Shown here: positions 9,182 to 30,510 of the stretch, piece after piece
How the letters are laid out: every line of letters starts with the position of its first letter
How positions within the stretch are numbered: position 1 is the stretch's first letter
NCBI RefSeq assembly: GCF_000172995.2
Contig: NC_014731.1
Coordinates: 120,001-152,000, forward strand
Length of the DNA: 32,000 nucleotides
From: Halogeometricum borinquense DSM 11551
Lineage (GTDB): Archaea; Halobacteriota; Halobacteria; Halobacteriales; Haloferacaceae
Direction: 5' to 3'
Notes under the pieces: model-generated
Database searches by the model: none
Seen by the model: the letters and a program-made list of their open reading frames with translations, nothing else
What the model was told of the DNA's origin: nothing
Program-made: the position numbers and the translations under genes

Positions 9182-12073
9182 ATGCCACCCGTATCTACGT
9201 TCGACGAGTCCTTCTTCCGAGAGGTGGTGTTCGACACCGAAGAAGGAATACTTTCGCTCGACGAGGACGGGACCGTCGTATTCGCCAGCCAACCAATCGA
9301 GCAACTACTGGGTTACGACCCGGACGAACTGGTCGGTGAGTCAGTCGGCCGTCTCTTCTCACCGGATCACGAGAGACCGCTCGAGACGGTGCGGCGCGAG
9401 GCCGAACGGGAACCGACTGAAGTCGGTGATGCGACGACGGATATCACGCTCGTCCATGCCGACGGGCATGCTGTCTCAGTTGCACTTACCGCCGAATCAA
9501 CCGAATACGACGAAACACAGTTTTTCACGCTTCGTATCCGTACACAGGGGGGTAACAAAAGCCGGCAAACGTCCGATGGAGAGAGTCGCTCCGCGAAAGG
9601 CAGACTACCACAGAAGGTGTTTGAGTACAGCAACGAAGCAATATTCGTTTTCGACACGGACAACGACGAAATCATCGAATGCAACCCCCGTGCGTGTGAG
9701 CGACTCGGCTACTCGCGCGAGGAACTGCTATCGGTCAGCCCATCAGACATCTACGCGACCGAGGAGGCGTTTGTTGGGTTCATCAAGGAGGTGTTCGAAC
9801 ACGGTACCAGTTGGACCGACGAACTCAGTTGTCGCGCCGCCGACGGCGAAACGTTCCCGATAGAGGCATCAGCGACTCTGCTCTACGTCGACGGCAAGCC
9901 GCATGTGCTTGTATTCGGTCGTGATATCTCCGAACAACGTAAGCAACAACGGGAATTAGAGCGGTATCGGACGATAGTCGAAGCCGTTGGTGAGGGTGTC
10001 TTCGCCGCTGACGACAAGTTCAGATTCACGGTCGCCAACGAGGGCACTGCCAAACTGACGGGGTACACGAAAGACGAACTCATCGGTAGCTCATTGACAC
10101 GGTTCCTCGCAGGAGAAGACGACCGCGTCGATAGAAGCGAGTACGAGGAACTACAAACCAGTGAACGACGCACCGTCGTGGACGCCGAATCCGCCGAGTC
10201 AGCCCGCAAAGAACTGCTCAAATCCGAAAGAGACGTGATGAAGGTTGAAGCGCCCATCTGCACGAAAGACGACGAAATCGTGCCTGTGGAAGTCCGATTC
10301 AGTGAACTCCCGACGGAATCGGACGACGACTTCCGAGGTATGACGGGAGTACTGATCGACGTCTCCGAGCGAAAAGAACACGAACGGCGACTCCGGGCAC
10401 TCAGCGAGGCGAGTCGCAAGTTGACTCAGGCGATGGACCGCGACGCCATCGCTCGGGACACCCTCGATGCCGTCGAACGAATCCTCGGTTTTGACGTTGG
10501 TTGCGTCCGGATGTTCGACTCCGAGAGTAACACTCTTGAGACGGTCGCTGTCACTGATGCCGCACAGAAGTTACTCGACTCGCGGTCCGCTTTCGACCTC
10601 GAGATCTCCCTCGCTGGCCGCGCGTATCGGAGCGGAGAGACAGTCGTCAATCAACCGGCTGCCGGTGAAGGAGTCACCGGCGACGAGGCGAGTCTGCACC
10701 TCCCACTCGGAAAGCACGGGACGCTCTCGATGTTTACCGAGTCAGCGGACGAGTTCACAGAGACAGACATCCAGTTCATCGAAGTGCTTGCCGCGACGGT
10801 CACAACCCATCTCGACCGGACTGAGCGGGAGCGAATGCTTCAGAAGAGCGAAAAAGAGTACCGAAACCAGCGCGACCAACTCAATACGCTCAACCGCATC
10901 AACGAACTCATCCAAGAACTCATCGGGGAGTTAGTCGAAGCCGGGATGCGCGAGACGATAGAAGAGCGAGTCTGTCAACAGTTGGCGGCATCAAGCCTCT
11001 ACAAGTACGCGTGGATTGCGGCGGTGGAAGTGACTGGCAAGAACGCAACGATCAAAACGGGTGCCGGTGTCGAAAAAGACCATCTCGACGCGCTGGACAA
11101 TATGTCGATATCCCAGTTGGGGAACGGGACAGTCAAACAGGCAATCGAGACGGGCGAGATAAGCGTCGTCCGACAGTATCTCGTAGAGGGCAAAGACAAA
11201 GACGAACGCGAAGACGAAGACAAACTCGAAGTGACCGCCGCCATACCCCTCCAGTACGGAAACCGCGTCTACGGCGTCTTGGTCGTAAACTCGGTGCGTG
11301 AAGATGCACTCTCCGAGCAAGCGCAAGCAGGTCTGGAGGTTCTCGGCGACACCATCGGGTTTACGATAAACGCCATCCAGAACAAAGAACTCCTCCTCTC
11401 GGACGAAATAGTCGAACTCGAATTCGCGGTCAGCGACACGGAAAGCATCCCAGTGTACTTCTCGAAGCATCTCGAATGCCGCTGCCGACTCGAAGGAACG
11501 ACCCCAACCGAAGACGGAAACTACCTGTGTTATCTGCGTATCGAAGACAAATCGGTTGCGGACGCTCTCGAAGCGGCCGAGCGGATGGAGTCTATCGCGG
11601 ATGCTCGGCTGGTTAAAGAATACGATGAGGAATGCCTACTGGAAGTGATCAAGACGGAATCCGCCCCCGGTGAAATGATTGACGTCGGCGCGAGCATCCG
11701 GTCGGCATCGGCCAATTGCGGGGAGGGAACGGTCGTCCTCGAGGTGCCACAGACGGTAGACATCCGAGAGGTCGTCGAGGCGTTCCAGCACCTCTACCCC
11801 AACTCCGAGTTGGTCGCAAAGCGCGAAGTTGACCGTTCGGTTCGGACGGCCGCCGAATTTCGGGACACAGTCGGCGGCCAACTCACGGACAAACAGCAAA
11901 TGGCGGCCAAGTCAGCGTACTACGCTGGCTACTTCGACTGGCCGCGTGGGAGCACCGCAGAGGACGTTGCCGAGTCGATGGGAATCTCATCGGCAACGTT
12001 CCACCAACACCTTCGAAAAGCCGAGCAGAAGCTGATGGCATCGTTCTTCAGAGACACCAGACACACCGAGTGA
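9182..12073 (+). CDS. Multi-domain PAS/PAS/PAS-GAF-GAF-HTH_10 regulator (Bat-like)
   Basis: ORF 9125..12073. The ATG at 9182 (MPPVSTFDESFF...) is followed directly by a PAS-like segment. There are several PAS S-box-like segments ('...DGTVVFASQPIEQLLGYDPDELVGESV', '...IIECNPRACERLGYSREELLSVSPSDI', '...FTVANEGTAKLTGYTKDELIGSSL'), then GAF-like regions. The C-terminal 'LTDKQQMAAKSAYYAGYFDWPRGSTAEDVAESMGISSATFHQHLRKAEQKL' is an HTH_10 domain. Confidence 0.9.
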   Translation: MPPVSTFDESFFREVVFDTEEGILSLDEDGTVVFASQPIEQLLGYDPDELVGESVGRLFSPDHERPLETVRREAEREPTEVGDATTDITLVHADGHAVSVALTAESTEYDETQFFTLRIRTQGGNKSRQTSDGESRSAKGRLPQKVFEYSNEAIFVFDTDNDEIIECNPRACERLGYSREELLSVSPSDIYATEEAFVGFIKEVFEHGTSWTDELSCRAADGETFPIEASATLLYVDGKPHVLVFGRDISEQRKQQRELERYRTIVEAVGEGVFAADDKFRFTVANEGTAKLTGYTKDELIGSSLTRFLAGEDDRVDRSEYEELQTSERRTVVDAESAESARKELLKSERDVMKVEAPICTKDDEIVPVEVRFSELPTESDDDFRGMTGVLIDVSERKEHERRLRALSEASRKLTQAMDRDAIARDTLDAVERILGFDVGCVRMFDSESNTLETVAVTDAAQKLLDSRSAFDLEISLAGRAYRSGETVVNQPAAGEGVTGDEASLHLPLGKHGTLSMFTESADEFTETDIQFIEVLAATVTTHLDRTERERMLQKSEKEYRNQRDQLNTLNRINELIQELIGELVEAGMRETIEERVCQQLAASSLYKYAWIAAVEVTGKNATIKTGAGVEKDHLDALDNMSISQLGNGTVKQAIETGEISVVRQYLVEGKDKDEREDEDKLEVTAAIPLQYGNRVYGVLVVNSVREDALSEQAQAGLEVLGDTIGFTINAIQNKELLLSDEIVELEFAVSDTESIPVYFSKHLECRCRLEGTTPTEDGNYLCYLRIEDKSVADALEAAERMESIADARLVKEYDEECLLEVIKTESAPGEMIDVGASIRSASANCGEGTVVLEVPQTVDIREVVEAFQHLYPNSELVAKREVDRSVRTAAEFRDTVGGQLTDKQQMAAKSAYYAGYFDWPRGSTAEDVAESMGISSATFHQHLRKAEQKLMASFFRDTRHTE

Positions 12074-15127: not shown

Positions 15128-16672
15128 TTACTCGCCGTTCGCCTCTCCGTCGTGGGAGAGCATCCGTTCGAGCATCTCGATCTCATCGTTGTCCAGCTCA
15201 TCGAGATCCATATCCGCGAGGTCATCGAGGTCGTCCGCACCGGTCTCGGTGCCGAGTTCGATGATCTCATCGCGGGTCAGGTCGTCGAGGAACGCTCCGA
15301 CCTCGATGTCCTCGTGCTCGTCTCGTTCGAGATCGACGGTCTCGCCGTCAGACTCCAACTCAAGCCCGTGGGTCTCGACTTCAACCGCATCGCCGCGCTG
15401 TTCGATTTCGTGCTCGTCTGTCTCGAATTCGACCTCCTCGTCGTCGTTCTCGAACTCGACGTCGTCCTCGTGATCTTCGACCTCTAGGTCGTCATCGTGC
15501 TGTTCGATTTCGTGCTCGTCCGTCTCGAACTCGACATCGTCCCCGCCATCCTCGCTTTCGAAGTCGATTCCGTCCTCGTGATCTTCGACATCAACGCTGT
15601 CATCGTCCTGTTCGATGTCGTGATCCTCGGTCTCGAACTCGAGGCGGTTACCATCGTTCTCGAAATCGATGTCGTCGATTTCGACTTCGAGAGCGTCCTC
15701 GATCTGCTCGATTTCGCCGCCGTCGAATTCGATGTCTGCCATCTCGTCGGTTACTTCTAAGTCAACCGTGCCAGTGGCGTCTTCGAAGTCGAGGCGGTCA
15801 CCGTCGTTCTCGAAGTCGAGACCATTTTCGTCTTCGACTTCGGCGTCGTCGCCCTCCTGTTCGACCTCGGTACCGTCTGCTTCAACGTCAACCTCGTCTT
15901 GCTTGCCGAGGTTCTCGAAATGGAAGCCGGCCTTCTCGACTTCGAGTTTCTTGCCGTCGTGTTCGATTTCGTGTTCGTCGGTCTCGATTTCGACCTCGCC
16001 GTGATCGCGTTCGACATCGACGTCATCGTTCTCGAACTCAAGGTCGCTGGCGTCGTCCTCGAACTTGTTGCCGCCGCGCTCGTATTCGACCTCGTCCGTT
16101 TCGACTTCGACGCTCTCGCCGCGCTGTTCGATCTCGTTGTCTTCGAACTCAACGTCAACTACGTCGCCGCCGTCGTCGCTCTCGAAGTCGAGACCGTCCT
16201 CGTGGTCTTCGACCTCTAGGTCGTCATCGTCCTGTTCAATCTCGTGGTCACCGGACTTTGCTTCGACCTCGTCCTCGTCGTTTTCGAAGTCGAGTTCAGC
16301 TTCGTCGTCCTCGACCGCTACGTCCTCGTCGTTCTGTTCGATATCCAAGCCGTCAAACTCGACATCGACCTCGTCATCGCCCTCGTTGGACTCGAAGTCG
16401 AGATCCTCCTCGTCGTCCTCTACTTCGACATCGTCGCCGTGCTGTTCTATTTCTCCGTCCTCGGTTTCGACCTCTACGTCACGGCTTGCATCGCTCTCGT
16501 GGCTATTCACGACCATGTCGTGACCACTCGCAAGACCGATATCGAGCGGGTCTGTTGCTACTTCAGAGCTGACAGCATCCCCCGGGACCGCGACCGCTAC
16601 CGGCGTCGCTGTGCCGACAAGCAGGACGACCACGAGGAACGTGATCAGCGCGAATCGATTACTTTGTTTCAT
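15128..16672 (-). CDS. Secreted hyper-acidic strand-turn repeat protein, type A copy 1
   Basis: ORF 15128..16723(-). The ATG at 16672 gives the Sec-like signal 'MKQSNRFALITFLVVVLLVGTATPVAVAVPG'. About 10-11 super-repeats follow, such as 'VDVEFEDNEIEQRGESVEVETDEVEYE' and 'VEFETDEHEIEQHDDDLEVEDHEDDVEFENDDEE'. I counted 65 D/E in one 119-residue stretch. The non-repeat C-terminal tail is 'FLDDLTRDEIIELGTETGADDLDDLADMDLDELDNDEIEMLERML'. Confidence 0.8.
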   Translation of the reverse strand: MKQSNRFALITFLVVVLLVGTATPVAVAVPGDAVSSEVATDPLDIGLASGHDMVVNSHESDASRDVEVETEDGEIEQHGDDVEVEDDEEDLDFESNEGDDEVDVEFDGLDIEQNDEDVAVEDDEAELDFENDEDEVEAKSGDHEIEQDDDDLEVEDHEDGLDFESDDGGDVVDVEFEDNEIEQRGESVEVETDEVEYERGGNKFEDDASDLEFENDDVDVERDHGEVEIETDEHEIEHDGKKLEVEKAGFHFENLGKQDEVDVEADGTEVEQEGDDAEVEDENGLDFENDGDRLDFEDATGTVDLEVTDEMADIEFDGGEIEQIEDALEVEIDDIDFENDGNRLEFETEDHDIEQDDDSVDVEDHEDGIDFESEDGGDDVEFETDEHEIEQHDDDLEVEDHEDDVEFENDDEEVEFETDEHEIEQRGDAVEVETHGLELESDGETVDLERDEHEDIEVGAFLDDLTRDEIIELGTETGADDLDDLADMDLDELDNDEIEMLERMLSHDGEANGE

Positions 16673-16861
16673 ACTCGTGTTGTTGCTATGTCCGATCACT
16701 GCGACCGCGAAGCAATGGAGCACAGTGTTGAACCGGGGATCTCGCCCGGTGGCAGCGTAACTGGCGAGAAAAGTGAGGGGGCGCTATCTCAGCTCTCGCT
16801 ACGAGAGCCACGTCGTACTCACTGTCCCGGAAATTCGGTAGTACGTTTGGGTCCGCCGTGA

Positions 16862-18265
16862 TTATGGGCTGCCCTCGCTGTCGTCATCGGTAAGCATACG
16901 TTCGAGCATGTTGACCTCGTTGTCGTTGAGATCCTCGAGATCCATGTCCGCGAGGTCATCGAGGTCGTCCGCACCGGTCTCGGTGCCGAGTTCGATGATC
17001 TCATCGCGGGTCAGATCGTCGAGGAACGCTTCGACTTCTGTGTCGTCGTGATCATCGCGTTCGAGGTCAATGCTTTCGCCGTCGGATTCGAGATCGAGGC
17101 CACCGTCTTTCTCGACATCGAGGTTATCGCCGCTGTGCTCGATGTCGTGGTCGTCGGTTTCCAGTTCCGTCTCGTCGCCGTCGTTCTCGAACTCGAAGTC
17201 GTCGTCGTGGTCTTCGACATCGACATCGTTACCGTCTTGTTCGATGTCGCGGTCGTCATCCTCGAATTCGACCTCCTCACCGTCGTTCTCGAAGTCAATC
17301 CCATCGTCGGTGTCGACTTCGAAGTCGTCATCGTCTAACTCGATGTCAGTGGCGTCGTTCCGGAAGTCGATGCCGTTCCGGTCGTTCTCGAACTCGAACT
17401 CCTCGCCCTCAACATCGGCGTCACCACCTCTATGTTCGATATCGTGCTCGTCGTCGGCCTCGAACTCGTGGTCGTCGCCGTCGCTCTCTAAGTCGAGGTC
17501 GTTGTCATCATCCTCGACTTCGAGGTCGTCGCCACGCTGTTCGATCTCGCGCTCGTCGGTCTCGACGTCGATATCGTCACCGTCGAGATCGATGTCAATC
17601 CCGCCGCTACCGTCGAACTCGATATCGAGACCGCCGTCGTTCTCGAATTCGAGGTCGGATAGCTCAACGTCCGCCTCGTCGCCTCGTTTCTCGATCTCGG
17701 TCTCGTCGTGTTCGACGTCGAGGTCGTCGCCTTCAGCTTCGTAGTCGAGGTCGTGACCGTCGGTGTCGTCTTCGACCTCAAGACGGTCGCCATCCTGTTC
17801 GATTTCGGCCTCGCCGGTTTCGACGTCGACGCGGTCACCGTCGTCGTCAGCCTCGAAGTCGAGGTCGTTCTCCTCATCCTCAACTTCGACTTCGTCGTCG
17901 CGCTGTTCGATCTCGTGGTCATCTGTTTCGACATCGACATCGTCACCGCCGTCGCGAGACTCGAATTCGAAGTCGTCCTCGTCATCTTCGACTTCAAGGT
18001 CATCGCCGTCCTGTTCGAGGTCTAAGTCCTCGAACTCGACATCAGCCTCGTCGTCGTCGGCGTTAGACTCGAAGTCGAGGTCGTCATCATCATCCTCGAT
18101 TTCGGCTTCGTCGCCGCTGTGTTCAATTTCGCCGTCTTCGGTGTCAATGTCGACTTCGTTGTCCTGGTGATCAGCAGCGACCGGCATCGCGGCACCGGCA
18201 GTGATCATACCGACCATCAGGAACAGTATCAGTACTAATCGAAATGTGTCTTTCATGGCCTTCAT
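16862..18265 (-). CDS. Secreted hyper-acidic strand-turn repeat protein, type B copy 1
   Basis: ORF 16862..18352(-). ATGs at 18265 and 18256 give 'MKAMKDTFRLVLILFLMVGMITAGAAMPVAADH', a Sec-like signal. It has the same repeat grammar and carries the same C-terminal tail as the adjacent A1 gene. Confidence 0.8.
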   Translation of the reverse strand: MKAMKDTFRLVLILFLMVGMITAGAAMPVAADHQDNEVDIDTEDGEIEHSGDEAEIEDDDDDLDFESNADDDEADVEFEDLDLEQDGDDLEVEDDEDDFEFESRDGGDDVDVETDDHEIEQRDDEVEVEDEENDLDFEADDDGDRVDVETGEAEIEQDGDRLEVEDDTDGHDLDYEAEGDDLDVEHDETEIEKRGDEADVELSDLEFENDGGLDIEFDGSGGIDIDLDGDDIDVETDEREIEQRGDDLEVEDDDNDLDLESDGDDHEFEADDEHDIEHRGGDADVEGEEFEFENDRNGIDFRNDATDIELDDDDFEVDTDDGIDFENDGEEVEFEDDDRDIEQDGNDVDVEDHDDDFEFENDGDETELETDDHDIEHSGDNLDVEKDGGLDLESDGESIDLERDDHDDTEVEAFLDDLTRDEIIELGTETGADDLDDLADMDLEDLNDNEVNMLERMLTDDDSEGSP

Positions 18266-18806
18266 CTCGTCGTCTATCACCCCACAAGTTAGGACAGAAT
18301 CGGCGAATCTATGCAAGGACAGAAACTTCGAACCTGTCCCGACTGTGGGCATCTAACTGTAGGGATTAGGTATATATAATATTATTATAACTAATAGGTT
18401 CCTGAGTAAAACGGAGTTCATACCATGAGTGTGCGAGCATAGGATGAAGTTCCATATACCAAGTCACCGTGCGACCAGTCCCCCATGGTTCGCAGGCCGA
18501 AACCTGTTGTATCCGAATACACAGGCCGAAAAGCGCCACTCCTCCCACACCTGAAGACGCAAGTATGCGTTCACACTATAAGACGCGGGGATGCGCTCGC
18601 GCTATGTATCACTACGAAGCGGCTCTGACCATTACACAGTACCGGATAAGAGCCGGATCATCCGAGTCGGTAACAGGGTTACGGTTCCCTCAACCAACAC
18701 TCATGTACTTGGCTGTTGTATACAGAGGTGAACGAAAAACAGCCGATTACGGGCAGCTCAAGTCCCGTATCCCCTCGGCAGAGACAACCAAAACTACCAC
18801 TCAACA

Positions 18807-19136
18807 ATGACAGTTTACCGCGCATGTCCGTACTGCGATGAGGTATTTCAGATCGGGTCAGAGGAGGACAACCCACTCGTAGACCATATCCGCGAGTTTC
18901 ATACCGTTACTGAAGACGCTCCGTTGACGTCGTTTTCGCAGGATGAACTCCAGCGGCGACTCCACGAGGCCAGTACCGTCGAGGAGACGAAAGCACTGAT
19001 GCTCGCTATCCTCTACAAACGACATATTCCCGTTCGGACCCTCTCGACACGGTTTGGGATTCCAGAAGAGATGATTCGAGGATGGTTCGACCGTCTCGCG
19101 TCCGGATGGGATTCCAAATCGAAGAATACGCAATAA
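18807..19136 (+). CDS. Small protein with an N-terminal CxxC...HxxxxH zinc-finger-like motif and a possible C-terminal HTH
   Basis: 'CPYCDEVFQIGSEEDNPLVDHIREFH' is a C2H2-like spacing. The later segment 'IPVRTLSTRFGIPEEMIRGWFDRL' looks helix-turn-helix-like. Confidence 0.55.
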   Translation: MTVYRACPYCDEVFQIGSEEDNPLVDHIREFHTVTEDAPLTSFSQDELQRRLHEASTVEETKALMLAILYKRHIPVRTLSTRFGIPEEMIRGWFDRLASGWDSKSKNTQ

Positions 19137-19310
19137 ACGGAGCGTGGTATTGGTTGCAACCATTCTGAGCGTACTGCGGTCGGCTGTCCGTGCGGGCAGC
19201 TACGTGCGCGTTACCAATCTCTAGAAGAGAGATACAATGTCATCAGTTGGTGAAATCGCTGACAAAACCGATATACGTTCGAGCCTGCTAGACAGTATGG
19301 AGCATTCCTG

Positions 19311-20105
19311 ATGTCCACGAACAGACGGCTTGACCCCGACGACGTGGTTGACGCCGTATCGCGTCGCGCGGAGATTATGCAACGTCTGTTAGACGGACCT
19401 CAGTACAACCGAGATATTCGCGAATCAGTCGGAGTATCACGCTCGACCGCGTACAAAGCGATTAGCGAGCTCGAAGAGATGGGACTTGCCCGGAGGGGCA
19501 GTGAGGGGTATGAACTCACAGCGACCGGACGCCTGTTGTTCGAGGAGTATCGTCGGTTCCGAAACCGGGTCGAAGCCGTCTGTCATCCGGCCCAGTTACT
19601 CTCCATTCTACCGGCGGACATCGACATCAACTTCGAAGTTCTCGAAGGTGCTGAAGTGTCCTTCGCGGAGCGATATGCACCAAACCGTCCGGTCACAGAG
19701 ATAGCGGACGTGATCCGCGACGCTGACGTGTTACGGGGAACCGGACCGGTCGTCCTCCCAAGCTACGTCGAACTGTTCCACGATCAGTTCGTCGCTGGCG
19801 AACTCGAAGCCGAGTTGGTTTTCGAACGGGCCGCGTTCGACCATCTCTCTACGGACTACGCTGACGAGTTCTCCGAGGCCGTCGAAAGCGGCGCTCTCGA
19901 AGTCCGAGTGACGGACGAAGAGCTCCCGTTCGGCTTACTGATGATCGAAAAGCCGACTCAGAAAGTCGGTGTCATCGTGTACGACCGCGGGGGAGAACTC
20001 AGAGGATTCATTCTGAACGACTCCGAAAATGCGGTCGAGTGGGGCGAAAAAAAGTGGGAACGGTACCGAGAGGCGGCGGCCCCGCTTACGCCCGGAGATA
20101 ACTAA
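19311..20105 (+). CDS. Winged-HTH transcriptional regulator with a large C-terminal domain (haloarchaeal ArsR/FilR1-like architecture)
   Basis: 'RRAEIMQRLLDGPQYNRDIRESVGVSRSTAYKAISELEEMGLARRGSEGYELTATGRLL' is a wHTH. A ~180-aa acidic C-terminal domain follows, as in many haloarchaeal regulators of this type. Confidence 0.85.
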   Translation: MSTNRRLDPDDVVDAVSRRAEIMQRLLDGPQYNRDIRESVGVSRSTAYKAISELEEMGLARRGSEGYELTATGRLLFEEYRRFRNRVEAVCHPAQLLSILPADIDINFEVLEGAEVSFAERYAPNRPVTEIADVIRDADVLRGTGPVVLPSYVELFHDQFVAGELEAELVFERAAFDHLSTDYADEFSEAVESGALEVRVTDEELPFGLLMIEKPTQKVGVIVYDRGGELRGFILNDSENAVEWGEKKWERYREAAAPLTPGDN

Positions 20106-20330
20106 TTCGCGGCACTGCACGGCATTTCAGACCGTCAATCGATCACGACTCATTCGATAACTCAGCAGTAAGTCAGTAGCGACTACCGACCGGTTCAGCG
20201 GGCAGTAAGGAGCTGATTCATCGGTAGCCAAAGAGTTATTTATACGCTCCGAGTAGTTTAACACGAACGGCTGTCGACTGGCGTTCCAGCGCTCGTGTGA
20301 CGGTCACGAACCAGACACAATCCTATCACG

Positions 20331-21233
20331 ATGACCGACTTTGACGGGCCGATGACATCGGACCTCACCCAAGAGGCGTACGACGTCTACCTCGACCTCG
20401 CCCAAGAGGTCACAGCACACGAAAACGACGTTGTTGAAACAGTTCCAGACTTTTTCGACATCGGTTCCGTACACGAGTGTCTGCAGTTTCCACTGAATCT
20501 GTGGGAATCCGGGCGGAAGCCGATGCGGACGGTTCCTGCGCTTGTCGCATATGAGCCGTTGCTCGACGGCGACGAGGCCGACACAGTGGCACAGATTCTG
20601 GTCGGCCTCGACGTGTTTGTGATGATGCTCGACGAGTTCATCGATACCGCCCGAACGGACAGGCGTTTCCGAACCCAACTCGCGGTCAACGTCGCGTTTT
20701 CGAGTTTGCTGTCGTTCGCCACCATTCCGGAGTCGGCCAAGGAGACGGTCGTCGATGCGCTCACTGCGTACCTCGTCGAAGCCTCCCGAATCCCGGCCGT
20801 CGAACGGGAGGTCGCGCGTGCCCTCACAAACACGACATCGAGCGAGCAGGCGATGGACCTGATCCGATTCGCGTACGGCTTTCGTGCGCGGGACATCGCC
20901 GTGTTCGGTGCCCTACCGGCGCTCGTCTCTGACGTTGACAGAGAAGTGGCCGACCGAATCGAGAGCGACCTCCAGACTTACCGGGCGCACTGTCTCCTCT
21001 ACGACGATATCAGAGACATCGAGCAAGACCGGCGAAACGGGATCGAGACGCCCGTCATGTGGCTGTTAGACCGTCACCGCGACCCCGAGGTAGTTGCGGC
21101 ACGGATTGCGTCGGTCTACCGGTCGTTCGAGTATTCGGATGCGGACTACACGGACGTACTCCGCGAGATGGAACCAACGAGTGATGATCCCATCGACGAA
21201 CTGACATCGGCGATGCCGTCACAGTCCGAGTAA
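20331..21233 (+). CDS. Hypothetical protein, possible class-I isoprenoid (polyprenyl/terpenoid) synthase-like fold
   Basis: 300-aa acidic ORF with two Asp-rich motifs about 124 residues apart. They are 'MMLDEFID' (D-E-x-x-D, aa 101-105) and 'LLYDDIRDIEQDRRNG' (DDxxD, aa 225-229). This resembles the FARM/SARM motifs of trans-prenyl synthases. The function call is inference only. Confidence 0.6.
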   Translation: MTDFDGPMTSDLTQEAYDVYLDLAQEVTAHENDVVETVPDFFDIGSVHECLQFPLNLWESGRKPMRTVPALVAYEPLLDGDEADTVAQILVGLDVFVMMLDEFIDTARTDRRFRTQLAVNVAFSSLLSFATIPESAKETVVDALTAYLVEASRIPAVEREVARALTNTTSSEQAMDLIRFAYGFRARDIAVFGALPALVSDVDREVADRIESDLQTYRAHCLLYDDIRDIEQDRRNGIETPVMWLLDRHRDPEVVAARIASVYRSFEYSDADYTDVLREMEPTSDDPIDELTSAMPSQSE

Positions 21234-21268
21234 ACCATATCCGTCAGCGAACACGGTACGAAACCGCT

Positions 21269-21454
21269 TCACCGACGCATCCACTTGGCACGACAGCGGT
21301 CGCTGCAGAAACTATGAATCACTGTTTCTCCGTCGCGAGTTTGGCTAGCTTTCGTTGGATGCCATTCGGAAACGTCGATGATTGAGCCACAGGCGGCACA
21401 GCGGTCAATCTGCCGTCCCGGGAAGTGCGACGTGAGTTGTTCTCTCATAGCCAT
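21269..21454 (-). CDS. Small FCS/TRASH-type zinc-finger protein (CxxC ... FCSxxC)
   Basis: The ATG at 21454 gives 'MAMREQLTSHFPGRQIDRCAACGSIIDVSEWHPTKASQTRDGETVIHSFCSDRCRAKWMRR'. Its four Cys residues are arranged as in zf-FCS/TRASH metal-binding modules. The longer ORF extending to 21544 looks like a spurious extension. Confidence 0.6.
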   Translation of the reverse strand: MAMREQLTSHFPGRQIDRCAACGSIIDVSEWHPTKASQTRDGETVIHSFCSDRCRAKWMRR

Positions 21455-21672
21455 GGGCCTATCTAGTGATAGGGGCCGAGTGGTGGTCACTTTCCCGGGT
21501 CGGACCTGTGCACACGGAAAGACGCCTGTACAGCCGTAACACATGTTTCGAGACTCGAACCATGGGTATCGATTGAAACACCTGCCAAACGAACCAGCAA
21601 CAAACGTATCATCTGGTCCAATCTGCCGGCAACATCGGGAAGAAGTGATATCCGCGCCGCTATTGCGGGCCG

Positions 21673-21722
21673 GTCTCGTCTCGTCTCGTCTTGTCTTGTC
21701 TCGTCTCGTCTTATCTTGTCTT
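21673..21722. repeat. Pentanucleotide microsatellite (GTCTY)x10
   Basis: Read directly as gtctc gtctc gtctc gtctt gtctt gtctc gtctc gtctt atctt gtctt. The last unit overlaps the TAA stop (21721-21723) of the His-acidic protein gene on the minus strand. Confidence 0.95.
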
Positions 21723-22497
21723 ACCCGATTTCGATGTCGATACCGTCGCCGTCGTGGTCGATTTCGATGTCGTCACCCTCGACATCGATTTCGTCGTCGC
21801 CGTGGTCGAGTTCGACCTCACCGTCGCCTTCGACTTCGAGGTCGTCATCGTCGAATTCGACTTCAGCGTCGCCATCGACCTCTATCTCGTCGTCACCGTG
21901 ATCGACCTCGACTCCATCGTCACCCTCGGCTTCGAAGTCGTCACCATCGTGTTCGACGTGAGCATCGTCTCCTTCGGCTTCGATCTCATCATCGCCGTGA
22001 TCGACCTCAACCCCGTCGTCGCTCCCAACTTCTAATTCATCCTCATCGTGTTCCACGTGAGCGTCGTCACCCGCAGCGTCAATCTCGTCGTCACCGTGGT
22101 CAACGTGGATATCGTCACCCTCGGCTTCGAGGTCGTCCTCATCGTGTTCCACGTGAGCGTCGTCATCGACCTCTATCTCGTCATCGCCGTGGTCGAGTTC
22201 GAGTCCATCGTCTGCCCCGACTTCGATTTCGTCATCATCGTGGTCAACATGGACATCATCACCCTCGGCTTCGACGTGATCATCGCCGAAGTCGAGTTCA
22301 ACTTCCTCATCGTCGTCATCGTCGAAGTCTATATCAACATCATCATCGTCAAAGTCGTCGTCGAACTCATCCTCATCGTCGAAGTGGTCGAAGTCGGTAC
22401 TCTCGGCACTCGCTACCCCGACACCACCGGCTAACGCGACGACGACCAACAGGCTAACTACGACTACCGCTCCAGCTGTGAATGCGTGTCGTCTCAT
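21721..22497 (-). CDS. Secreted His-decorated hyper-acidic strand-turn repeat protein (type C)
   Basis: The signal is 'MRRHAFTAGAVVVVSLLVVVALAGGVGVASA'. The mature part consists only of D, E, G, V, I, L, F, A, H, S and T, with no Lys or Arg. It has about 22 octad-like units, for example 'GVEVDHGDD EIEAEGDD AHVEHDEDD LEAEGDD'. There are about 17 His residues, falling on every second unit. Confidence 0.8.
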   Translation of the reverse strand: MRRHAFTAGAVVVVSLLVVVALAGGVGVASAESTDFDHFDDEDEFDDDFDDDDVDIDFDDDDDEEVELDFGDDHVEAEGDDVHVDHDDDEIEVGADDGLELDHGDDEIEVDDDAHVEHDEDDLEAEGDDIHVDHGDDEIDAAGDDAHVEHDEDELEVGSDDGVEVDHGDDEIEAEGDDAHVEHDGDDFEAEGDDGVEVDHGDDEIEVDGDAEVEFDDDDLEVEGDGEVELDHGDDEIDVEGDDIEIDHDGDGIDIEIG

Positions 22498-23052
22498 GAG
22501 TTTGGTCCGTCAGCCGATACGCTCGACTAACGGGTTATAATAACAGAGCCAGACACGTCGCTTTATCGTGGAAATCATGTGTACCAAACGAACACAGACC
22601 TCGAATACAAACCCATGATTACCTTCTCGAACCATCAAACGCCGTCCAATGGTTCAGACACAATCGAAAATGAGAGATTGACGATAGATGAGTTGCCGAC
22701 GACCGCAACGAGCCACCCGCCAGTGACCAGATCGATAGTGATCTGTCTGTCGGCGGCGGTTGCACGCCACCGACTCGGTCATCGGCCCGACAATGGACCT
22801 GCGTCCGGTGTCGTTCGGCTTCGCGGCTGAGCCCTCACGCTGTTCGGTGCCGTCGCGTCGGACCCGAGTATTGCACTCGATGCGTCTCCAGTGGTCGCAT
22901 CACCAACGCAGGCTGGAGACGGAGCTACTTGGATGGAGGTGTGGCGTGAACTGGAAGGGATCCCGAACGGACGAGACGAAGTAGGTCGTCGCCCGTCCCA
23001 CCGTCACACTCCGTGCTGTCAACACCGAACACGCCGGTGAGTGATTGGCTGT

Positions 23053-24441
23053 CTAGTCGTCCTCGTTATTGTCCTCCTGTTCGACGTCAACGTTCTCACC
23101 ATCGGATTCGACCTCAAGCCCATCCTCGTCTTCGACATCAAGTACCTCGTCCTCCTGCTCGATGTCGTGCTTGTCCGTCTCGAACTCAAGGCCGTTCCGG
23201 TCGTTCTCGAACTCCGTGTCGTCATCGTGATCTTCGACATCGACATCGTCATCGCGCTGCTCGATGTCGTGTTCGTCAGTCTCGAACTCGACATCGTCGC
23301 CACTACCCTCGCTCTCGAAGTCGATTCCGTCCTCGTCGTCTTCGACCTCGAGGTCGTCACCATCCTGCTCGATGTCGTGCTCGTCGGTTTCGAGGTCGGT
23401 CATCTCGTCGTCCGATTCGAGATCGGTGTCGCCGGCTTCGGCGTCCAGCGCGTCGCCGTCCTGCTCGATCTCGCCCCCATCGAATTCGACGTCAACCGCC
23501 TCGTCCGTCGCCTCTAAATCGACCGTCTCAGCGGCGTCTTCGAAGTCGAGGCGGTCACCGTCGTTCTCGAAGTCGAGACCATTTTCGTCTTCGACTTCGG
23601 CGTCGTCGCCCTCTTGCTCGACCTCGGTACCGTCTGCTTCAACGTCAACCTCGTCTTGCTCGCCGATGTTCTCGAAGTGGAAGCCAGCCTTCTCGACTTC
23701 GAGTTCCTTGCCGTCGTGTTCGATTTCGTGCTCGTCGGTCTCGATTTCGACCTCGCCGTGATCGCGTTCGACATCGACGTCATCGTTCTCGAATTCGAGG
23801 TCGTCAGCGTCGTCCTCGAACTTGTTGCCGCCGCGCTCGTATTCGACCTCGTCCGTTTCGACCTCGGCGCTCTCGCCGCGCTGCTCGATGTCGGCGTCCT
23901 CAGTCTCGACGTCTAGCTCGTCGCCACCGTCCTCGGACTCGAAGTCGAGACCGGCCTCGTGGTCTTCGACTTCGGTTCCGTCGTCATCCTGTTCGATGTC
24001 GTGGCCGTCCGATTCGGCCTCAACCTCGTCCTCGTCGCTCTCGAAATCCAGGTCCGCCTCATCGTCCTCCACATCGAGCGAGTCATCGTCCTGCTCGATT
24101 TCCTGCTCGCCGCTGTCGATATCGACCGTGTCATCATCCTCGTTGGACTCGAAGTCGAGATCCTCTTCCTCGTCCTCTACCTCTGCATCATCGCCATCGT
24201 GTTCGATTTCGCCGTCCTCGGTCTCGACCTCAACGTCTCCACTCTCCTCGTTATCTTCGTCGTCTGCGGTATCGACGACTGTCTCGTGGTCGCCGACGAG
24301 GTCGGCACCGGACGGGTTCGATACAGATGCAGTGCTGGTAATGCCCACCGTGCCCGCGGCCGCGGCAGGGAGTGCTACACTAGCAACTAACCCGACCGCG
24401 AGGAACGTAACCAGCGTGAGTGTCTGTATTCGGTCCATCAT
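23053..24441 (-). CDS. Secreted hyper-acidic strand-turn repeat protein, type A copy 2
   Basis: ORF 23053..24525(-). ATGs at 24441 and 24438 give 'MMDRIQTLTLVTFLAVGLVASVALPAAAAG', a Sec-like signal. The central ~115 aa are almost identical to A1 ('RGES.EVETDEVEYERGGNKFEDDA.DLEFENDDVDVERDHGEVEIETDEHEIEHDGK.LEVEKAGFHFEN...'). It ends within the repeats and lacks the C-terminal tail domain. Confidence 0.8.
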   Translation of the reverse strand: MMDRIQTLTLVTFLAVGLVASVALPAAAAGTVGITSTASVSNPSGADLVGDHETVVDTADDEDNEESGDVEVETEDGEIEHDGDDAEVEDEEEDLDFESNEDDDTVDIDSGEQEIEQDDDSLDVEDDEADLDFESDEDEVEAESDGHDIEQDDDGTEVEDHEAGLDFESEDGGDELDVETEDADIEQRGESAEVETDEVEYERGGNKFEDDADDLEFENDDVDVERDHGEVEIETDEHEIEHDGKELEVEKAGFHFENIGEQDEVDVEADGTEVEQEGDDAEVEDENGLDFENDGDRLDFEDAAETVDLEATDEAVDVEFDGGEIEQDGDALDAEAGDTDLESDDEMTDLETDEHDIEQDGDDLEVEDDEDGIDFESEGSGDDVEFETDEHDIEQRDDDVDVEDHDDDTEFENDRNGLEFETDKHDIEQEDEVLDVEDEDGLEVESDGENVDVEQEDNNEDD

Positions 24442-24618
24442 CGTATGTTGAATTATTCGAGCCCTATACCCCTGTAATAAGTGGGAGTTGAACCGGGCGG
24501 CCACGCTCTCGGTACCGAGCGACAAAATGGAGGTGACTTCAGGTTTGCCCCCAGTTGTGGGATCGCACGATACCGAGCGTCCCGAACCGGGCAGCGGGCT
24601 CAGCTCCGGGGCGTCCGA

Positions 24619-26013
24619 TTAGCCGTCAGCGCTGAGATAGCTCTCCAGCAGGTTAAGGGTCTCTCGGTCGAGATCCTCGATCTCCTCGTCAGCGAGTTCT
24701 TCGTAGTCGTCCGCGTCGGACTGGCTGATGAGATTATTCACCTGCGAGGTGGAGATGTCATCGAGGTACTGTCCGGTCTCGGCGTGGCTGTGCTCGCTCC
24801 GTTCGAGATCGACGGTCTCGCCGTCAGATTCGAGGTCAACACCGCCATCTTTTTCGACATCGAGTCGGTCGCCGCTCTGCTCGATGTCGTGGTCGTCGTT
24901 CTCGAACTCAAGTTCGTTCTCGTCGTTCTCGAACTCGACGTCGTCCTCGTGGTTTTCGACATCGACATCGTCACCGCGCTGTTCGATGTCGTGGTCGTCG
25001 TCCTCGAACTCGGTCTCTTCGTTGTCTGACTCGAAGTCCACTCCATCGTCGGTGTCGACTTCGAGTTCATCGTCCTCTTGTTCGACGTCAGTGGCGTCGT
25101 TCCGGAAGTCGATGCCGTTCCGGTCGTTCTCGAACTCGAACTCCTCGCCCTCGACGTCGGCGTCACTACCTGTGTGTTCGATTTCGTGCTCGTCGTCGGC
25201 CTCGAACTCGTGGTCGTCGCCGTCGCTCTCTAGGTCGAGGTTATTCCGCTCGTTTTCGACCTCCAGGTCGTCGCCGTCCTGTTCGATCTCCTGATCGTCG
25301 GTATCGATGTCGACATCGTCATTGTCGAGGTCGATGTCGATGTCGCCAGCGTCCTCAGACTCGAAGTCGAGGTCGCCGTTTTCGTTCTCGTATTCGACGT
25401 TGTCGCTCTCGACCTCAGCGTCGTCGCCGTGTTTCTCGATTTCGGCCTCGTCGTGTTCGACGTCGAGGTCGTCGTCCTCAGCCTCGTAGTCGAGGTCGTG
25501 ACCGTCAGTATCGTCCTCTACCTCAAGACGATTACCGGATTGTTCGATTTCGGCCTCGCCGGTTTCAACATCGACCTCGTCGTCGTCTTCCTCGGCCTCA
25601 AAGTCGAGGTCGTTCTCGTCGTCTTCGACTTCGGCGACGCCGTCATGTTTCTCAATCTCTTGGTCGTCCGTTTCGACATCAACATCGTCGCCACCGTCCT
25701 CGCTCTCGAAGTCGAGGTCGTTGTCTTCGTCCTCCACCTCAAGGTCGTCGTTGTCCTGCTCGATTTCGTTACCGTCGGATTCGATATCGGCAGTATCCTC
25801 GTCCTCGTTTGTCTCAGCGTCGAGGTCGTTTTCGTCGTCCTCTACCTCTGCGTCGTCGCCGTCGTGTTCGATTTCACCGTCTTCGGTGTCGACGTCGACT
25901 TTATCATTTCCTCCGTGGCTGGCGGCCACCGGCAGCACAGCACCGCCGGCGATCATGCCAACCGCGAGGAACACGATCAGTACGAGTCGGAATTTCTTAT
26001 TCATAGTTGACAT
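24619..26013 (-). CDS. Secreted hyper-acidic strand-turn repeat protein, type B copy 2
   Basis: ORF 24619..26073(-). ATGs at 26013 and 26004 give 'MSTMNKKFRLVLIVFLAVGMIAGGAVLPVAASH'. It is colinear with B1 throughout. Its C-terminal tail is a divergent version, 'YLDDISTSQVNNLISQSDADDYEELADEEIEDLDRETLNLLESYL'. Confidence 0.8.
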   Translation of the reverse strand: MSTMNKKFRLVLIVFLAVGMIAGGAVLPVAASHGGNDKVDVDTEDGEIEHDGDDAEVEDDENDLDAETNEDEDTADIESDGNEIEQDNDDLEVEDEDNDLDFESEDGGDDVDVETDDQEIEKHDGVAEVEDDENDLDFEAEEDDDEVDVETGEAEIEQSGNRLEVEDDTDGHDLDYEAEDDDLDVEHDEAEIEKHGDDAEVESDNVEYENENGDLDFESEDAGDIDIDLDNDDVDIDTDDQEIEQDGDDLEVENERNNLDLESDGDDHEFEADDEHEIEHTGSDADVEGEEFEFENDRNGIDFRNDATDVEQEDDELEVDTDDGVDFESDNEETEFEDDDHDIEQRGDDVDVENHEDDVEFENDENELEFENDDHDIEQSGDRLDVEKDGGVDLESDGETVDLERSEHSHAETGQYLDDISTSQVNNLISQSDADDYEELADEEIEDLDRETLNLLESYLSADG

Positions 26014-26171
26014 CTCGTCGTTCTCAACCCAGTATGGGGAGTGGTTCGAGACCCCTGACTGGGACAAGCACACATTTGGTAGGAACCCACATAAATCTAA
26101 GATAACTGACTAATCATCCGATATAGCGGTTTATATCGTGTGAACCGGGGAACCAACGGTTGAGGGATCGA

Positions 26172-26195: not shown

Positions 26196-26237
26196 GGTAC
26201 AACAGTTGCATAGTATGGTACAATAGTTGCATAGTAT
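26196..26237. repeat. Tandem 21-bp direct repeat x2 (GGTACAAYAGTTGCATAGTAT)
   Basis: The units at 26196-26216 and 26217-26237 differ at one position (C/T). Confidence 0.9.
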
Positions 26238-26277: not shown

Positions 26278-26333
26278 ATTGCAAAACGGGAATTACAAAA
26301 CGGGATTACAAAACGAGTGGATTGTAAAACGGA
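26278..26333. repeat. Four tandem ~13-bp units ATTRYAAAACGRG
   Basis: The units read attgcaaaacggg(a) / attacaaaacggg / attacaaaacgag(tgg) / attgtaaaacgga. The array lies in the spacer between the HxlR 3' end and the B2 5' end. Confidence 0.85.
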
Positions 26334-28704: not shown

Positions 28705-29275
28705 AGCACTGTCTACGTAGTGACTTCCTCAGCCGGTGTTCGTCCATCGAGCGCTTGATGCGGTCGTCGGAAGCATAGTATTGCGCGAATTGTATAAACT
28801 ACTTGTGGGTGCTCGCGTGACATCTCACCCAGAAATCATGGAAACAGTCGGCTCGCATGTGAGGGTGTAAAACAATATTCTTCGATAGTTTCGTTCGACG
28901 TAGTCGAGCCGACTGGTTAATCCTAATCGGGAGACGACAGTCCGATATCCATACCCACCAGCGAGAAACACAGCTTCTGAGAGATCAGTATCTCCGAGAA
29001 TCGATGAAGAAAGGCGCAACCGGAGTGGTTCCCTGTCGTCCAAATAATTCGACGTCAAGAACCAGCTTTGTTTCAGAGAATATTGTATTTAACAGACAAT
29101 ATAACTCACCATTGATTTTGACAGCGGGTTCGTCAACCGCAACCCGCTTCGTCGTTTCCTCAGCGGGTTGTGACCGCTGTCAGCCAGCCGATATATCCAT
29201 TCCAAACAGCTTGTGAGACCGTTCTATGCCGAGAGAGCAAAGAATTTGGTGGCTCTGTTGAAATAATCGATTAGT
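28705..29275 (-). pseudogene. Decayed, truncated IS6-family element copy (transposase remnant)
   Basis: It aligns by eye, position for position, with the first ~570 nt of the intact IS at 29293. For example, 'agcactgtctacgtagtgacttcctcagccgg' corresponds to 'ggcactgtctagttagtgacctcctcaaccgg'. Only a 77-aa fragment is still open (28825..29058), reading '...AVFLAGGYGYRTVVSRLGLTSRLDYVERN...'. Confidence 0.7.
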
Positions 29276-29284
29276 GATAGTTTG

Positions 29285-29292
29285 TCGAAGCC
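29285..29292. repeat. Left 8-bp target-site duplication TCGAAGCC of the intact IS
   Basis: An identical octamer is found at 30038-30045, immediately outside the right inverted repeat. Confidence 0.85.
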
Positions 29293-30037
29293 GGCACTGT
29301 CTAGTTAGTGACCTCCTCAACCGGCGTACGTCCGTTGAGCGATTGATGCGGTCGTTGAAAGTTATAGTATTGCGCAAATTGTATGAACCACTCGCGGATG
29401 CTTCCGTGACTGCCCACCCACGAATTATGGAAGCGGTCGACTCGCATTTTGAGGGTGTGAAACCATTTTTCGATGAGGTTTCGCTCGACGTAGTCAAGCC
29501 GACCGCTCAATCCTAATCGAGAGAGGGCAGTCTGATAGCCGTAGCCATCAACCAGAAACACAGCATCTGAGAGATCATGTTTCTCGGAAAGTCGATGGAG
29601 AAACGCAGCAGCCGGATCGGTACCATGCCGTCCAAACAACTCGACATCGAGAATCAGCTTCGTCTCGATGTCTATTGCGGCGTACAACCAAGACCACTCA
29701 CCGTTGATTTTGACAGCGGTCTCATCAACCGCAACCCGCTTCGGCGTTGCCTCAGGCGGGTTGTGACCGCTGTCAGCCAGTCGATGTACCCACTGCCAAA
29801 CAGCTTGATGAGAGCGTTCAACGCCGAGTATTCGAAGAATTTCTTTTGTCTCTCTAAGCGAACACCCGGTCGCGTGGAGCTGGACGGCGAACACCCTGAC
29901 GGGTGTCGCCGTCCGCTCACGCTCCCAAGTTTCTTCATAATCCGTCTCAAAGCACTCGCTGAGCAGGTCTGCGAGCATCTTGACCAACTAACTCAACGAC
30001 CTGCTCGTTCCTCAAACTGGCTTAACTAGACAGTGCC
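29293..30037 (-). mobile_element. Intact IS6-family insertion sequence (745 bp)
   Basis: It has perfect 15-bp terminal inverted repeats: GGCACTGTCTAGTTA at 29293-29307 and its reverse complement at 30023-30037. It contains a single transposase ORF and is flanked by an 8-bp direct repeat. The first 8 nt of the IR (GGCACTGT) match what I recall for the IS26 IR. Confidence 0.9.
29301..29987 (-). CDS. IS6-family DDE transposase
   Basis: 228 aa. 'VAVDETAVKINGEWSWLYAAID', 'VFLVDGYGYQTAL' and 'VERNLIEKWFHTLKMR' supply a D, D, E triad in IS6-typical contexts. Confidence 0.92.
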   Translation of the reverse strand: MVKMLADLLSECFETDYEETWERERTATPVRVFAVQLHATGCSLRETKEILRILGVERSHQAVWQWVHRLADSGHNPPEATPKRVAVDETAVKINGEWSWLYAAIDIETKLILDVELFGRHGTDPAAAFLHRLSEKHDLSDAVFLVDGYGYQTALSRLGLSGRLDYVERNLIEKWFHTLKMRVDRFHNSWVGSHGSIREWFIQFAQYYNFQRPHQSLNGRTPVEEVTN

Positions 30038-30045
30038 TCGAAGCC
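30038..30045. repeat. Right 8-bp target-site duplication TCGAAGCC
   Basis: It is identical to 29285-29292. Confidence 0.85.
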
Positions 30046-30510
30046 GTGCTGAATACAGAGTGCAAGTCGGTCACGGCCAAGTGGTATACAGATCAGGGGT
30101 CTATCGGACGCTTTTTTAGACAATTTCGAGACATATAGGAGATGAATCTCTCTATCCGTAGGAGCCCACTCGCACAATTCAGTATTACAGCTGCGTCTTC
30201 AGTCCTTGCCTCGAAGCTTCTCCGTCCCCAGACTCTCCTAGAAACAATCGTACTGGCAACTGCTGCTGGTCTTGGAGTCGTACTCAGTCAGCAGTTTTCC
30301 CTGTCATACCATATGGACAATCCCGGATTAGACGCTGCTCAAATAGAAGTAGACGACGTACTGGCACCGAACGACAGCCCCAGTTACGAGGCAACGGCCG
30401 CTCGAAGATGCACAGAAGATTCACCAGCGACGACCAATCTTACAAGAGACGCTCGGTACCGCTACGCAACCGAGGTGTGTTTCAGCCCAGAAAGCCGCAA
30501 CAGAGACAGA

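Follow-up and report, generated by a model that had tools for sequence, protein, structure and literature searches.

Paralogous genes for very acidic, apparently secreted proteins in Halogeometricum borinquense: an old duplication and probable short-tract gene conversion

Two modules of acidic genes and their near-identical tracts

In the 32,000-nucleotide stretch of Halogeometricum borinquense DSM 11551 analysed here (the window; all coordinates count from its first letter as position 1), four long minus-strand genes, A1, B1, A2, and B2, encode extremely acidic repeat proteins and form two modules, each with a B gene followed by an A gene. A fifth acidic gene, C, lies between the modules. The genes are strongly diverged from one another except in three short tracts of near-identity, one joining the cores of A1 and A2, one joining the cores of B1 and B2, and one joining the 3' ends of A1 and B1. 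The genes, tracts, and spacers are as follows.

15128-16672, minus strand: gene A1, 514 residues, with a putative signal peptide, about 10 acidic repeats of 34-36 residues, a core of atypical sequence, and, at the C-terminus, a helical acidic domain (CTD); called from the open reading frame (ORF) and its translation
16862-18265, minus strand: gene B1, 467 residues (464 if translation starts at the ATG at 18256), architecture as in A1, with the CTD; orthologue HFX_RS18815
23053-24441, minus strand: gene A2, 462 residues, paralogue of A1 without the CTD; positional orthologue HFX_RS18770, 458 residues, also without the CTD
24619-26013, minus strand: gene B2, 464 residues (461 if translation starts at the ATG at 26004), paralogous to B1, its CTD strongly diverged; positional orthologue HFX_RS18775
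21721-22497, minus strand: gene C, 258 residues, fifth very acidic and apparently secreted repeat protein, between the modules and adjoining module 2; 48% Asp+Glu, 7% His, 8-residue period
15777-16132, minus strand: putative A-core conversion tract in A1, residues 181-299 (YERGGNKFEDD...GFHFEN...); 16/356 mismatches with the A2 copy
23534-23889, minus strand: putative A-core conversion tract in A2, same comparison
17345-17499, minus strand: putative B-core conversion tract in B1, LDLESDGDDHEFEADDEHDIEHRGGDADVEGEEFEFENDRNGIDFRNDATD; 7/155 mismatches with the B2 copy
25087-25241, minus strand: putative B-core conversion tract in B2, same comparison
15201-15296, minus strand: putative CTD conversion tract in A1, pairing with 16935-17030 of B1; 2/96 mismatches, including an exact match of 68 nucleotides
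16935-17030, minus strand: putative CTD conversion tract in B1, pairing with 15201-15296 of A1
16673-16861, minus strand: B1-A1 spacer, 189 nucleotides, alignable to the B2-A2 spacer only at the 11-mer CCCGGTTCAAC
24442-24618, minus strand: B2-A2 spacer, 177 nucleotides

An earlier note, made from the letters of the window, had described two B-then-A modules on the minus strand about 8 kb apart, with spacers of ~180-190 nucleotides and with two mosaic blocks of about 95% identity inside gene pairs that have otherwise mostly diverged. Gene coordinates, strand, order, and pairing all hold. BLASTN aligns A1 with A2 (15308-16480 versus 23059-24237; 82% over 1.19 kb) and B1 with B2 (17058-18284 versus 24800-26031; 79% over 1.24 kb), the copies being displaced by 7.74-7.76 kb. 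The A block, for which about 16 mismatches had been counted by hand, has exactly that number, and both it and the B block align without gaps at 95.5% identity, whereas aligned-column identity outside the blocks is 71% for the A pair and 73% for the B pair. The note left unmentioned that the A and B genes are themselves paralogues, that C is a fifth acidic, apparently secreted gene, and that A1 and B1 share a tract at their 3' ends. In alignment, A and B are mutually colinear, with 47-54% amino acid identity and an identical order of repeats. The 514-residue form of A1 (43% Asp+Glu, net charge about -205) is also called in strains wsp4 and GCA_040679015.1, and its orthologue HFX_RS18810 in Haloferax mediterranei has the same length.

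Measured against the background divergence, the blocks have binomial tail probabilities of 5e-32 (A) and 3e-13 (B), which are still tiny after multiplication by the number of possible windows. Silent and amino acid-changing divergence (dS and dN, calculated by the Nei-Gojobori method with an in-house script) both fall inside the tracts. For the A1/A2 core, dS is 0.17 inside and 1.19 outside (dN 0.021 versus 0.206), and for the B1/B2 core the corresponding values are 0.16 and 1.12 (dN 0.024 versus 0.179), a drop in dS of about 7-fold. In the CTD shared by A1 and B1, dS is 0.25, compared with about 1.4 just upstream (dN 0.079 versus 0.219). The high-identity blocks of the earlier note are real, and their identity extends to silent sites.

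Age of the duplication and exchange between the paralogues

A Megablast search of plasmids returned a sole match, pHM500 of Hfx. mediterranei, on which a syntenic locus carries two modules about 10.3 kb apart. One consists of a regulator, a 300-residue protein, the C-like HFX_RS18765, HFX_RS18770 (A2-type), and HFX_RS18775 (B); the other consists of HFX_RS18810 (A1-type, with the CTD) and HFX_RS18815 (B1-type). Across the canonical repeat flanks, A1 and HFX_RS18810 show 61 differences and A1 and A2 show 84; B1 and HFX_RS18815 show 37 and B1 and B2 show 61. The proportion of differing silent sites (pS) between the paralogues outside the blocks is 0.58-0.60, compared with 0.45-0.54 for single-copy neighbours between the two genera. 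Because orthologues are nearer than paralogues in the flanks, and in view of the pS comparison, the module duplication predates the split of the Halogeometricum and Haloferax loci, and the earlier note's question of whether one or two modules are ancestral is answered, for this pair of genera, in favour of two.

Inside the tracts the relationships are reversed. The A core shows 16 differences within H. borinquense, 38 within Hfx. mediterranei, and 42-54 between the genera; the B core shows 7 within H. borinquense, 2 (of 152) within Hfx. mediterranei, and 30-32 between the genera. The two Hfx. mediterranei B paralogues also have a nearly identical CTD (5/135 differences) and are 88% identical overall, with HFX_RS18775 retaining a B2-like middle part. 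At the level of both strain and genus, paralogues of one genome are nearer to each other than to their orthologues in the tracts, and the opposite is true in the flanks. Such incongruence makes this a textbook case of concerted evolution, recurring at the same segments in two genera.

The complete genome of strain wsp4 (CP048739.1) contains the same five genes, and strain-level pS is about 0.06-0.12. Inside the A block, dS between the A1 genes of DSM 11551 and wsp4 is 0.44, compared with 0.11 outside, and DSM A1 is nearer there to A2 than to its own wsp4 orthologue. Over 15777-15950, A1 and A2 differ at 7/174 positions in DSM 11551 and at 22/174 in wsp4; over 15951-16132, the counts are 9/182 and 5/182. 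In wsp4, A1 equals A2 at 19 consecutive polymorphic sites (16091-15920), and the concordant A runs of 12 and 19 polymorphic sites each give p<=1e-4 by permutation. In the columns of 15777-15950, A2 is nearly constant across three strains (0-4 differences), whereas A1 differs between DSM 11551 and wsp4 at 24 sites. That A2 is near-invariant while A1 has changed points to A2 as the donor, and this suggests an A2-to-A1 transfer over this interval in the DSM lineage; direction is ambiguous in the remaining sub-tracts. The CTD of wsp4 B1 carries A1-type residues not present in DSM B1. Since tract boundaries and site patterns differ between the two H. borinquense strains, conversion has continued after the strains diverged.

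A possible crossover product is found in the draft assembly of strain GCA_004150395.1, in which a single 464-residue gene lies between the halocyanin gene and the 109-residue gene and appears to replace A1 and B1, with a deletion of 1.7 kb. This hybrid is of the A1 type in its last codons and downstream region and of the B1 type in all that lies upstream, and it changes from one to the other inside the shared CTD tract. The hybrid may be the expected product of unequal crossover, with B1 fused to the end of A1.

We consider it very probable that the mosaic arose by an old duplication followed by short-tract interlocus gene conversion between the paralogues. An ancestral B-A tandem pair was duplicated before the Halogeometricum and Haloferax copies of the locus diverged, and the copies have since drifted apart to silent-site saturation except in the A1/A2 core, the B1/B2 core, and the A1/B1 CTD. 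These tracts would have been homogenised repeatedly by non-reciprocal homologous recombination between direct repeats, independently in strains and in both genera, and the same recombination may also yield crossovers such as the B1/A1 fusion with its loss of 1.7 kb. The earlier note had proposed an old duplication followed by ongoing gene conversion or by selection on specific segments; both halves are borne out, the old duplication by the pS comparison and the two modules of Hfx. mediterranei and the conversion by dS and by the strain and genus incongruence. Selection acts too, the cores being strongly conserved as protein between the genera (dN about 0.02-0.04).

The mosaic is very unlikely to stem from allelic recombination after gene transfer, with DNA of other strains or species replacing the homologous resident sequence, in place of exchange between paralogues within one genome. 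Recombination between haloarchaeal species is reported (PMC3542582), A1 is unusually different between DSM 11551 and wsp4 inside the block (33/357 sites), and the replicon that carries the locus is a 339-kb plasmid in DSM 11551 and has 3.99 Mb in wsp4 (CP048739.1), a difference that suggests replicon fusion or relocation. An imported allele would not by itself make A1 resemble the resident A2, however, and it is the resident paralogue that the new sequence matches, at all but 7 of 174 positions in DSM 11551 and along the 19-site concordant run in wsp4. The within-genome similarity also recurs in Hfx. mediterranei, and imported DNA that served as the physical donor in an ectopic event would still amount to non-allelic conversion.

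Strong purifying selection on the atypical cores since the old duplication, with no exchange at all, is highly improbable. Between paralogues as between genera, no protein segments are better conserved than the cores (dN 0.02-0.04), which hold most of the aromatic and basic residues, and selection does act on them as well. Yet protein-level selection alone is insufficient because silent sites are homogenised too (dS 0.16-0.17 versus 1.1-1.2), and in the block the paralogues of one genome are nearer than orthologues across strains and genera. A second conserved segment, B 17700-17800, serves as a control: its proportion of differing amino acid-changing sites (pN) is 0.06 while its pS stays at 0.52, and it thus shows the pattern of selection without exchange.

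The chance that the second module or the blocks are an assembly artefact, a repeat expanded or chimeric in assembly, as the earlier note had allowed, is negligible: although short-read assemblies break exactly in the tracts, the blocks are 95% and not 100% identical with flanks at about 72%, and the finished genome agrees base for base with an independent draft. Over 20 kb, that draft of DSM 11551 (GCA_000337855.1, AOHT01000021.1) departs from 100% identity with the window only at three single-N contig joins, and the Logan assembly of ERR481281 is 100% identical over 17461-23562 with a contig end at both positions, inside tracts. Breaks inside the tracts indicate independently that the reads contain both copies. 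An artefact is excluded by these assemblies taken with pHM500 and the complete genome of wsp4, each of which has two diverged modules in the same order. The draft's N-join at 15781-15907 in A1 duplicates 127 nucleotides and creates a false A1 of 557 residues; its other N-joins are at 11092-11125 and 29307-29380.

Interlocus gene conversion is known for tufA and tufB in enterobacteria, and gene conversion between archaeal chaperonin paralogues is said to have been described by Archibald and Roger in 2002. The present locus shares with known cases discrete near-identical tracts in diverged paralogues, homogenised silent sites, same-genome paralogues that are nearer than orthologues, and tracts that differ between lineages, with a possible crossover product in addition. 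It differs in that only the non-canonical segments of the long repeat proteins carry tracts, at matching places in two genera, and in that paralogues 7.75 kb apart are linked as well as adjacent ones. Haloarchaea convert efficiently, and gene conversion has been described in polyploid Haloferax (PMC11276520), although that work concerns the equalisation of genome copies and not exchange between paralogues. The mechanism is thus already known, and what is new is a well-resolved instance in an unstudied protein family with an unusual predicted architecture. It offers an unusually clean, multi-level example of archaeal concerted evolution, spanning two genera, several strains, three tracts, and a possible crossover product in one strain. 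Tracts of ~100-350 nucleotides have persisted here although the paralogues have reached silent-site saturation in the flanks, and the locus could serve as a natural assay of tract length and of homology requirements in haloarchaeal recombination.

The acidic proteins and their predicted fold

The four A and B proteins contain 43-47% Asp+Glu and 2-4% Lys+Arg and have a net charge of about -200. Their ~10 repeats of 34-36 residues follow the consensus E-I-E-Q-D-G/D-D-D-L-E-V-E-D-D-E-D-D-L-D-F-E-S-x-D-G-G-D-D-V-D-V-E-x-D-D-x, in which four short strands of the type acid-hydrophobic-acid-hydrophobic are linked by Gly/Asp turns. Most of the aromatic and basic residues are held by the atypical cores. 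The small helical acidic CTD at the ends of A1, B1, and B2 is not a repeat and contains the sequence AFLDDLTRDEIIELGTETGADDLDDLADMDL...; it is absent from A2 and strongly diverged in B2. Judged by eye, all four N-termini open with a positively charged n-region and ~20 hydrophobic residues that lead to a small-x-small site, with candidate cleavage sites (marked by a slash) ...AMPVAA/DHQ and ...ALPAAAA/GTV, and ...ASA/Q in relatives; they look like cleavable Sec-type signal peptides. The C-termini (...MLSHDGEANGE, ...DDDSEGSP, ...QEDNNEDD, and ...SYLSADG) lack the hydrophobic tail of a PGF-CTERM signal for archaeosortase, and no PGF-CTERM match was found in Pfam or NCBIfam. Searches of the A/B proteins against Pfam, NCBIfam, and PDB sequences, and Rfam and tRNA searches of the genes and region, returned nothing at threshold. 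That A/B are real genes under purifying selection follows from between-strain dN/dS values of 0.06-0.17 and from their conservation in Hfx. mediterranei.

Gene C is a more distant fifth member of the A/B family. Its protein starts MRRHAF, and its signal could be Tat-type. The length of C varies by in-frame indels in short acidic repeats, with 258 residues in DSM 11551 and 275 in wsp4, and its Hfx. mediterranei counterpart HFX_RS18765, which adjoins the A2/B2-type module, has 347 residues with an extra region of DLDEDDLDALLDHDDF-type repeats. In the DSM draft annotation, a 96-residue plus-strand ORF overlaps the 5' part of the C ORF, and C itself is shortened to 143 residues.

AlphaFold2, run on the four-paralogue alignment, gave a predicted local distance difference test score (pLDDT) of 75 and a predicted template modelling score (pTM) of 0.64 for A1, with 46 six-residue β-strands, and values of 79 and 0.68 for B1, with 43 such strands. 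In the models, which are moderately reliable, the strands are joined by turns of 2-4 residues and are followed by four short helices corresponding to the CTD. The predicted fold is a long antiparallel β-hairpin meander.

In Foldseek searches, sizeable template modelling scores normalised to the target (TMt) were obtained only for single-layer β-sheets, namely the G-box of CPAP/SAS-4 (TCP10_C; entries 4bxq, 4bxp, and 4bxr, probability up to 1.0, TMt 0.42-0.48) and the central sheet of Borrelia OspA. Matches of low E-value also included Teneurin YD shells, with TMt of only about 0.05, and a viral library gave nothing meaningful. With the CPAP G-box and the OspA sheet the A/B models share a long run of antiparallel strands, of six residues in the models, with tight turns. 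The likeness is local and lies in a predicted model, though, and there is no sequence relation (no Pfam TCP10_C match and no PDB sequence match). The G-box and OspA sheets have about 20 strands or fewer, compared with ~45 in the A/B models, and the A/B proteins are unlike them in being extremely acidic, apparently secreted, and archaeal.

Two further architectures resemble the A/B proteins in pattern. RTX β-rolls are likewise secreted and acidic, with hydrophobic residues recurring about every 9 residues (the A/B autocorrelation peaks at 9) and with Gly/Asp-rich turns, but the A/B proteins lack the GGxGxDxUx consensus and are predicted to form antiparallel hairpins instead of a parallel β-roll. 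The relatives and segments gave no match to Pfam HemolysinCabind even at E<=10; an RTX-like β-roll and a VgrG/gp5-like β-helix were both considered and set aside, with only sub-threshold matches (DUF2345, TssI). The central repeats of AHNAK-type proteins share the alternating hydrophobic/charged strand pattern and are the best phmmer matches besides one haloarchaeal protein (E 3.6e-8 to 8e-4, 23-27% identity), but they are Lys- and Pro-rich, intracellular, and eukaryotic. The similarity to AHNAK is periodic and compositional and gives no grounds for claiming homology.

The family is unstudied; annotation of its members goes no further than "hypothetical protein", neither Pfam nor NCBIfam has a model for them, and no publication was found under the locus tags or accessions of these genes. 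Distant members occur in Halogeometricum limi (at least 3 genes within 5 kb), in a Halobacteriales metagenome-assembled genome (MAG; a tandem pair), and in Halomarina pelagica (a convergent pair), and multi-copy clusters are the rule. In Halomarina pelagica CP100454.1, members of 236 and 232 residues lie convergently, with an S8 protease gene on one side and two PAS-GAF-BAT-HTH_10 regulators on the other. The arrangement loosely echoes the window's own S8 protease (4312-6075) and Bat regulator (9125-12073). Of the four other loci examined, those of Halomarina pelagica, H. limi, and pHM500 have BAT/HTH_10 regulators nearby and that of the MAG does not, but such regulators are very common in haloarchaea.

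An exhaustive phmmer search of 1.84 billion representatives found one credible relative, Halomarina pelagica P0004, besides the AHNAK-like periodic matches. With A1 and the H. limi homologue as queries, a word-indexed protein search yielded 8000 low-complexity candidates but no match, in a collection that, by exact look-up, is without these acidic proteins. Searching genome contigs with a profile of the four-protein alignment gave pattern matches, none of which was confirmed by tblastn, probably owing to low-complexity filtering. H. limi and the MAG were recovered by a degenerate DNA pattern scan, amid mostly chance bacterial matches; the scan did not return H. borinquense itself though the window contains the motif.

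Our best guess at a function, at low confidence, is that of a secreted, polyanionic, cation-binding β-ribbon. The mature proteins would be exported unfolded and would fold in brine to long antiparallel β-hairpin ribbons, the surface of which would be poly-carboxylate apart from a single narrow hydrophobic stripe. As the stripe must be buried, the ribbons would most simply pair, A with B or each with itself, and paired ribbons could form a material outside or on the cell that binds cations and is strongly hydrated. Contact or nucleation would fall to the homogenised cores and the CTD, segments that would have to stay matched among co-expressed paralogues; aromatic and basic residues are concentrated there, which makes them plausible contact sites, and selection could then favour their staying matched. 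A bolder and rather unlikely extension is that A and B are subunits of a previously undescribed extracellular archaeal material, with ribbons paired through a two-residue-wide stripe into poly-carboxylate fibres or sheets that would lie at the cell surface and bind water and divalent cations there. Conversion would then be kept by selection because the register-setting cores and CTD must stay identical, as a quality control of hetero-oligomeric assembly.

A very improbable alternative to the ribbon function is that the acidic proteins are precursors or carriers processed by a secreted subtilisin-like protease into active peptides, in a halocin-like antagonism. The S8 protease gene at 4312-6075 lies within 10 kb in the window, another adjoins the Halomarina pelagica homologues, and protease-activated secreted precursors exist in Haloferax (PMC12893001). 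The precursor described there acts via N-terminal α-helices, however, whereas A and B are polyanionic and predicted to be all-β; the protease gene is not adjacent in H. borinquense and was not seen in the examined stretches of pHM500, H. limi, and the MAG.

An old duplication followed by gene conversion among acidic repeat proteins is likely to be the best explanation of the locus as a whole, and several observations count against parts of this account or against the ribbon function. On the evolutionary side, the run test for the B block is weak in DSM 11551 (p=0.19), owing to the few polymorphic sites in that block, and the B1/A1 hybrid is known from a draft assembly with N-gaps in C and B2 that may have collapsed. 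That the tracts recur at the same cores may be due to a recombination hot spot or to selection that keeps the segments matched. On the protein side, the models derive from an alignment of four paralogous sequences and three of the five have pLDDT <57, Foldseek found no global match in the PDB (TM score normalised to the query at most 0.2), and the neighbourhoods of the loci examined hold no conserved enzymatic or transport partner. The locus flags an apparently secreted family with a net charge of about -200 and a predicted β-hairpin meander, present in the genetically tractable Hfx. mediterranei.

Neighbouring genes and minor observations

Four further genes, unrelated to A/B and identified by Pfam scan, lie between the modules.

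18807-19136, plus strand: zinc-finger-like protein of 109 residues
19311-20105, plus strand: FilR1/HVO_A0261-type regulator
20331-21233, plus strand: protein of 300 residues with weak prenyl-synthase likeness
21269-21544, minus strand: DUF7576 protein

This inter-module gene order recurs ahead of the C/A/B module in Hfx. mediterranei. The 300-residue protein carries the UniRef label "polyprenyl synthetase", yet matches Pfam polyprenyl_synt only at E=0.094; it has motifs resembling DExxD and DDxxD, and in Hfx. mediterranei its gene again stands in the same order with that of the FilR1-type regulator. Neighbouring proteins in the window match Hbor_34160 and Hbor_34180 of DSM 11551 exactly, on a contig of 339,010 bp. 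The genes around the modules are typical of haloarchaea and include a PAS-GAF-BAT-HTH_10 regulator, halocyanin, an HVO_A0261/FilR1-type regulator, HxlR, and DUF7853.

Upstream of the acidic genes, the motif CCCGGTTCA(A/C) stands 45-55 nucleotides before the starts of A1 and A2 (16727-16737 and 24487-24497) and again upstream of B2 (about 26140-26150); it is the sole sequence common to both B-A spacers. Also upstream of B2 are two 21-nucleotide direct repeats and four tandem CGTTTTGYAAT units (26196-26237 and 26278-26331), the latter unit having 5 matches in the window against 0.55 expected by chance. These repeats are kept, with copy-number variation, in other H. borinquense strains and are absent from the Hfx. 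mediterranei loci; the array may be a candidate regulator-binding array.

Elsewhere in the window, two adjacent IS240-like copies (28706-29799 and 29291-30429) are 76-86% identical over ~590 nucleotides and include a DDE transposase ORF at 29301-29987; 29291-30429 is missing from wsp4 and 29294-30028 from GCA_004150395.1. A stretch of ~1.8 kb at 2441-4270 has a lower G+C content of 45-52%, no ORF of >=80 residues, and no Rfam or tRNA match. Long Arg-rich ORFs run antisense to the acidic genes on the plus strand, at 21543-22457 and 23013-24341. They are mirror artefacts of GAC/GAA-rich coding sequence and may mislead gene callers. The A/B genes both break short-read assemblies and yield false gene models, among them these ORFs and the 557-residue A1 of the draft.

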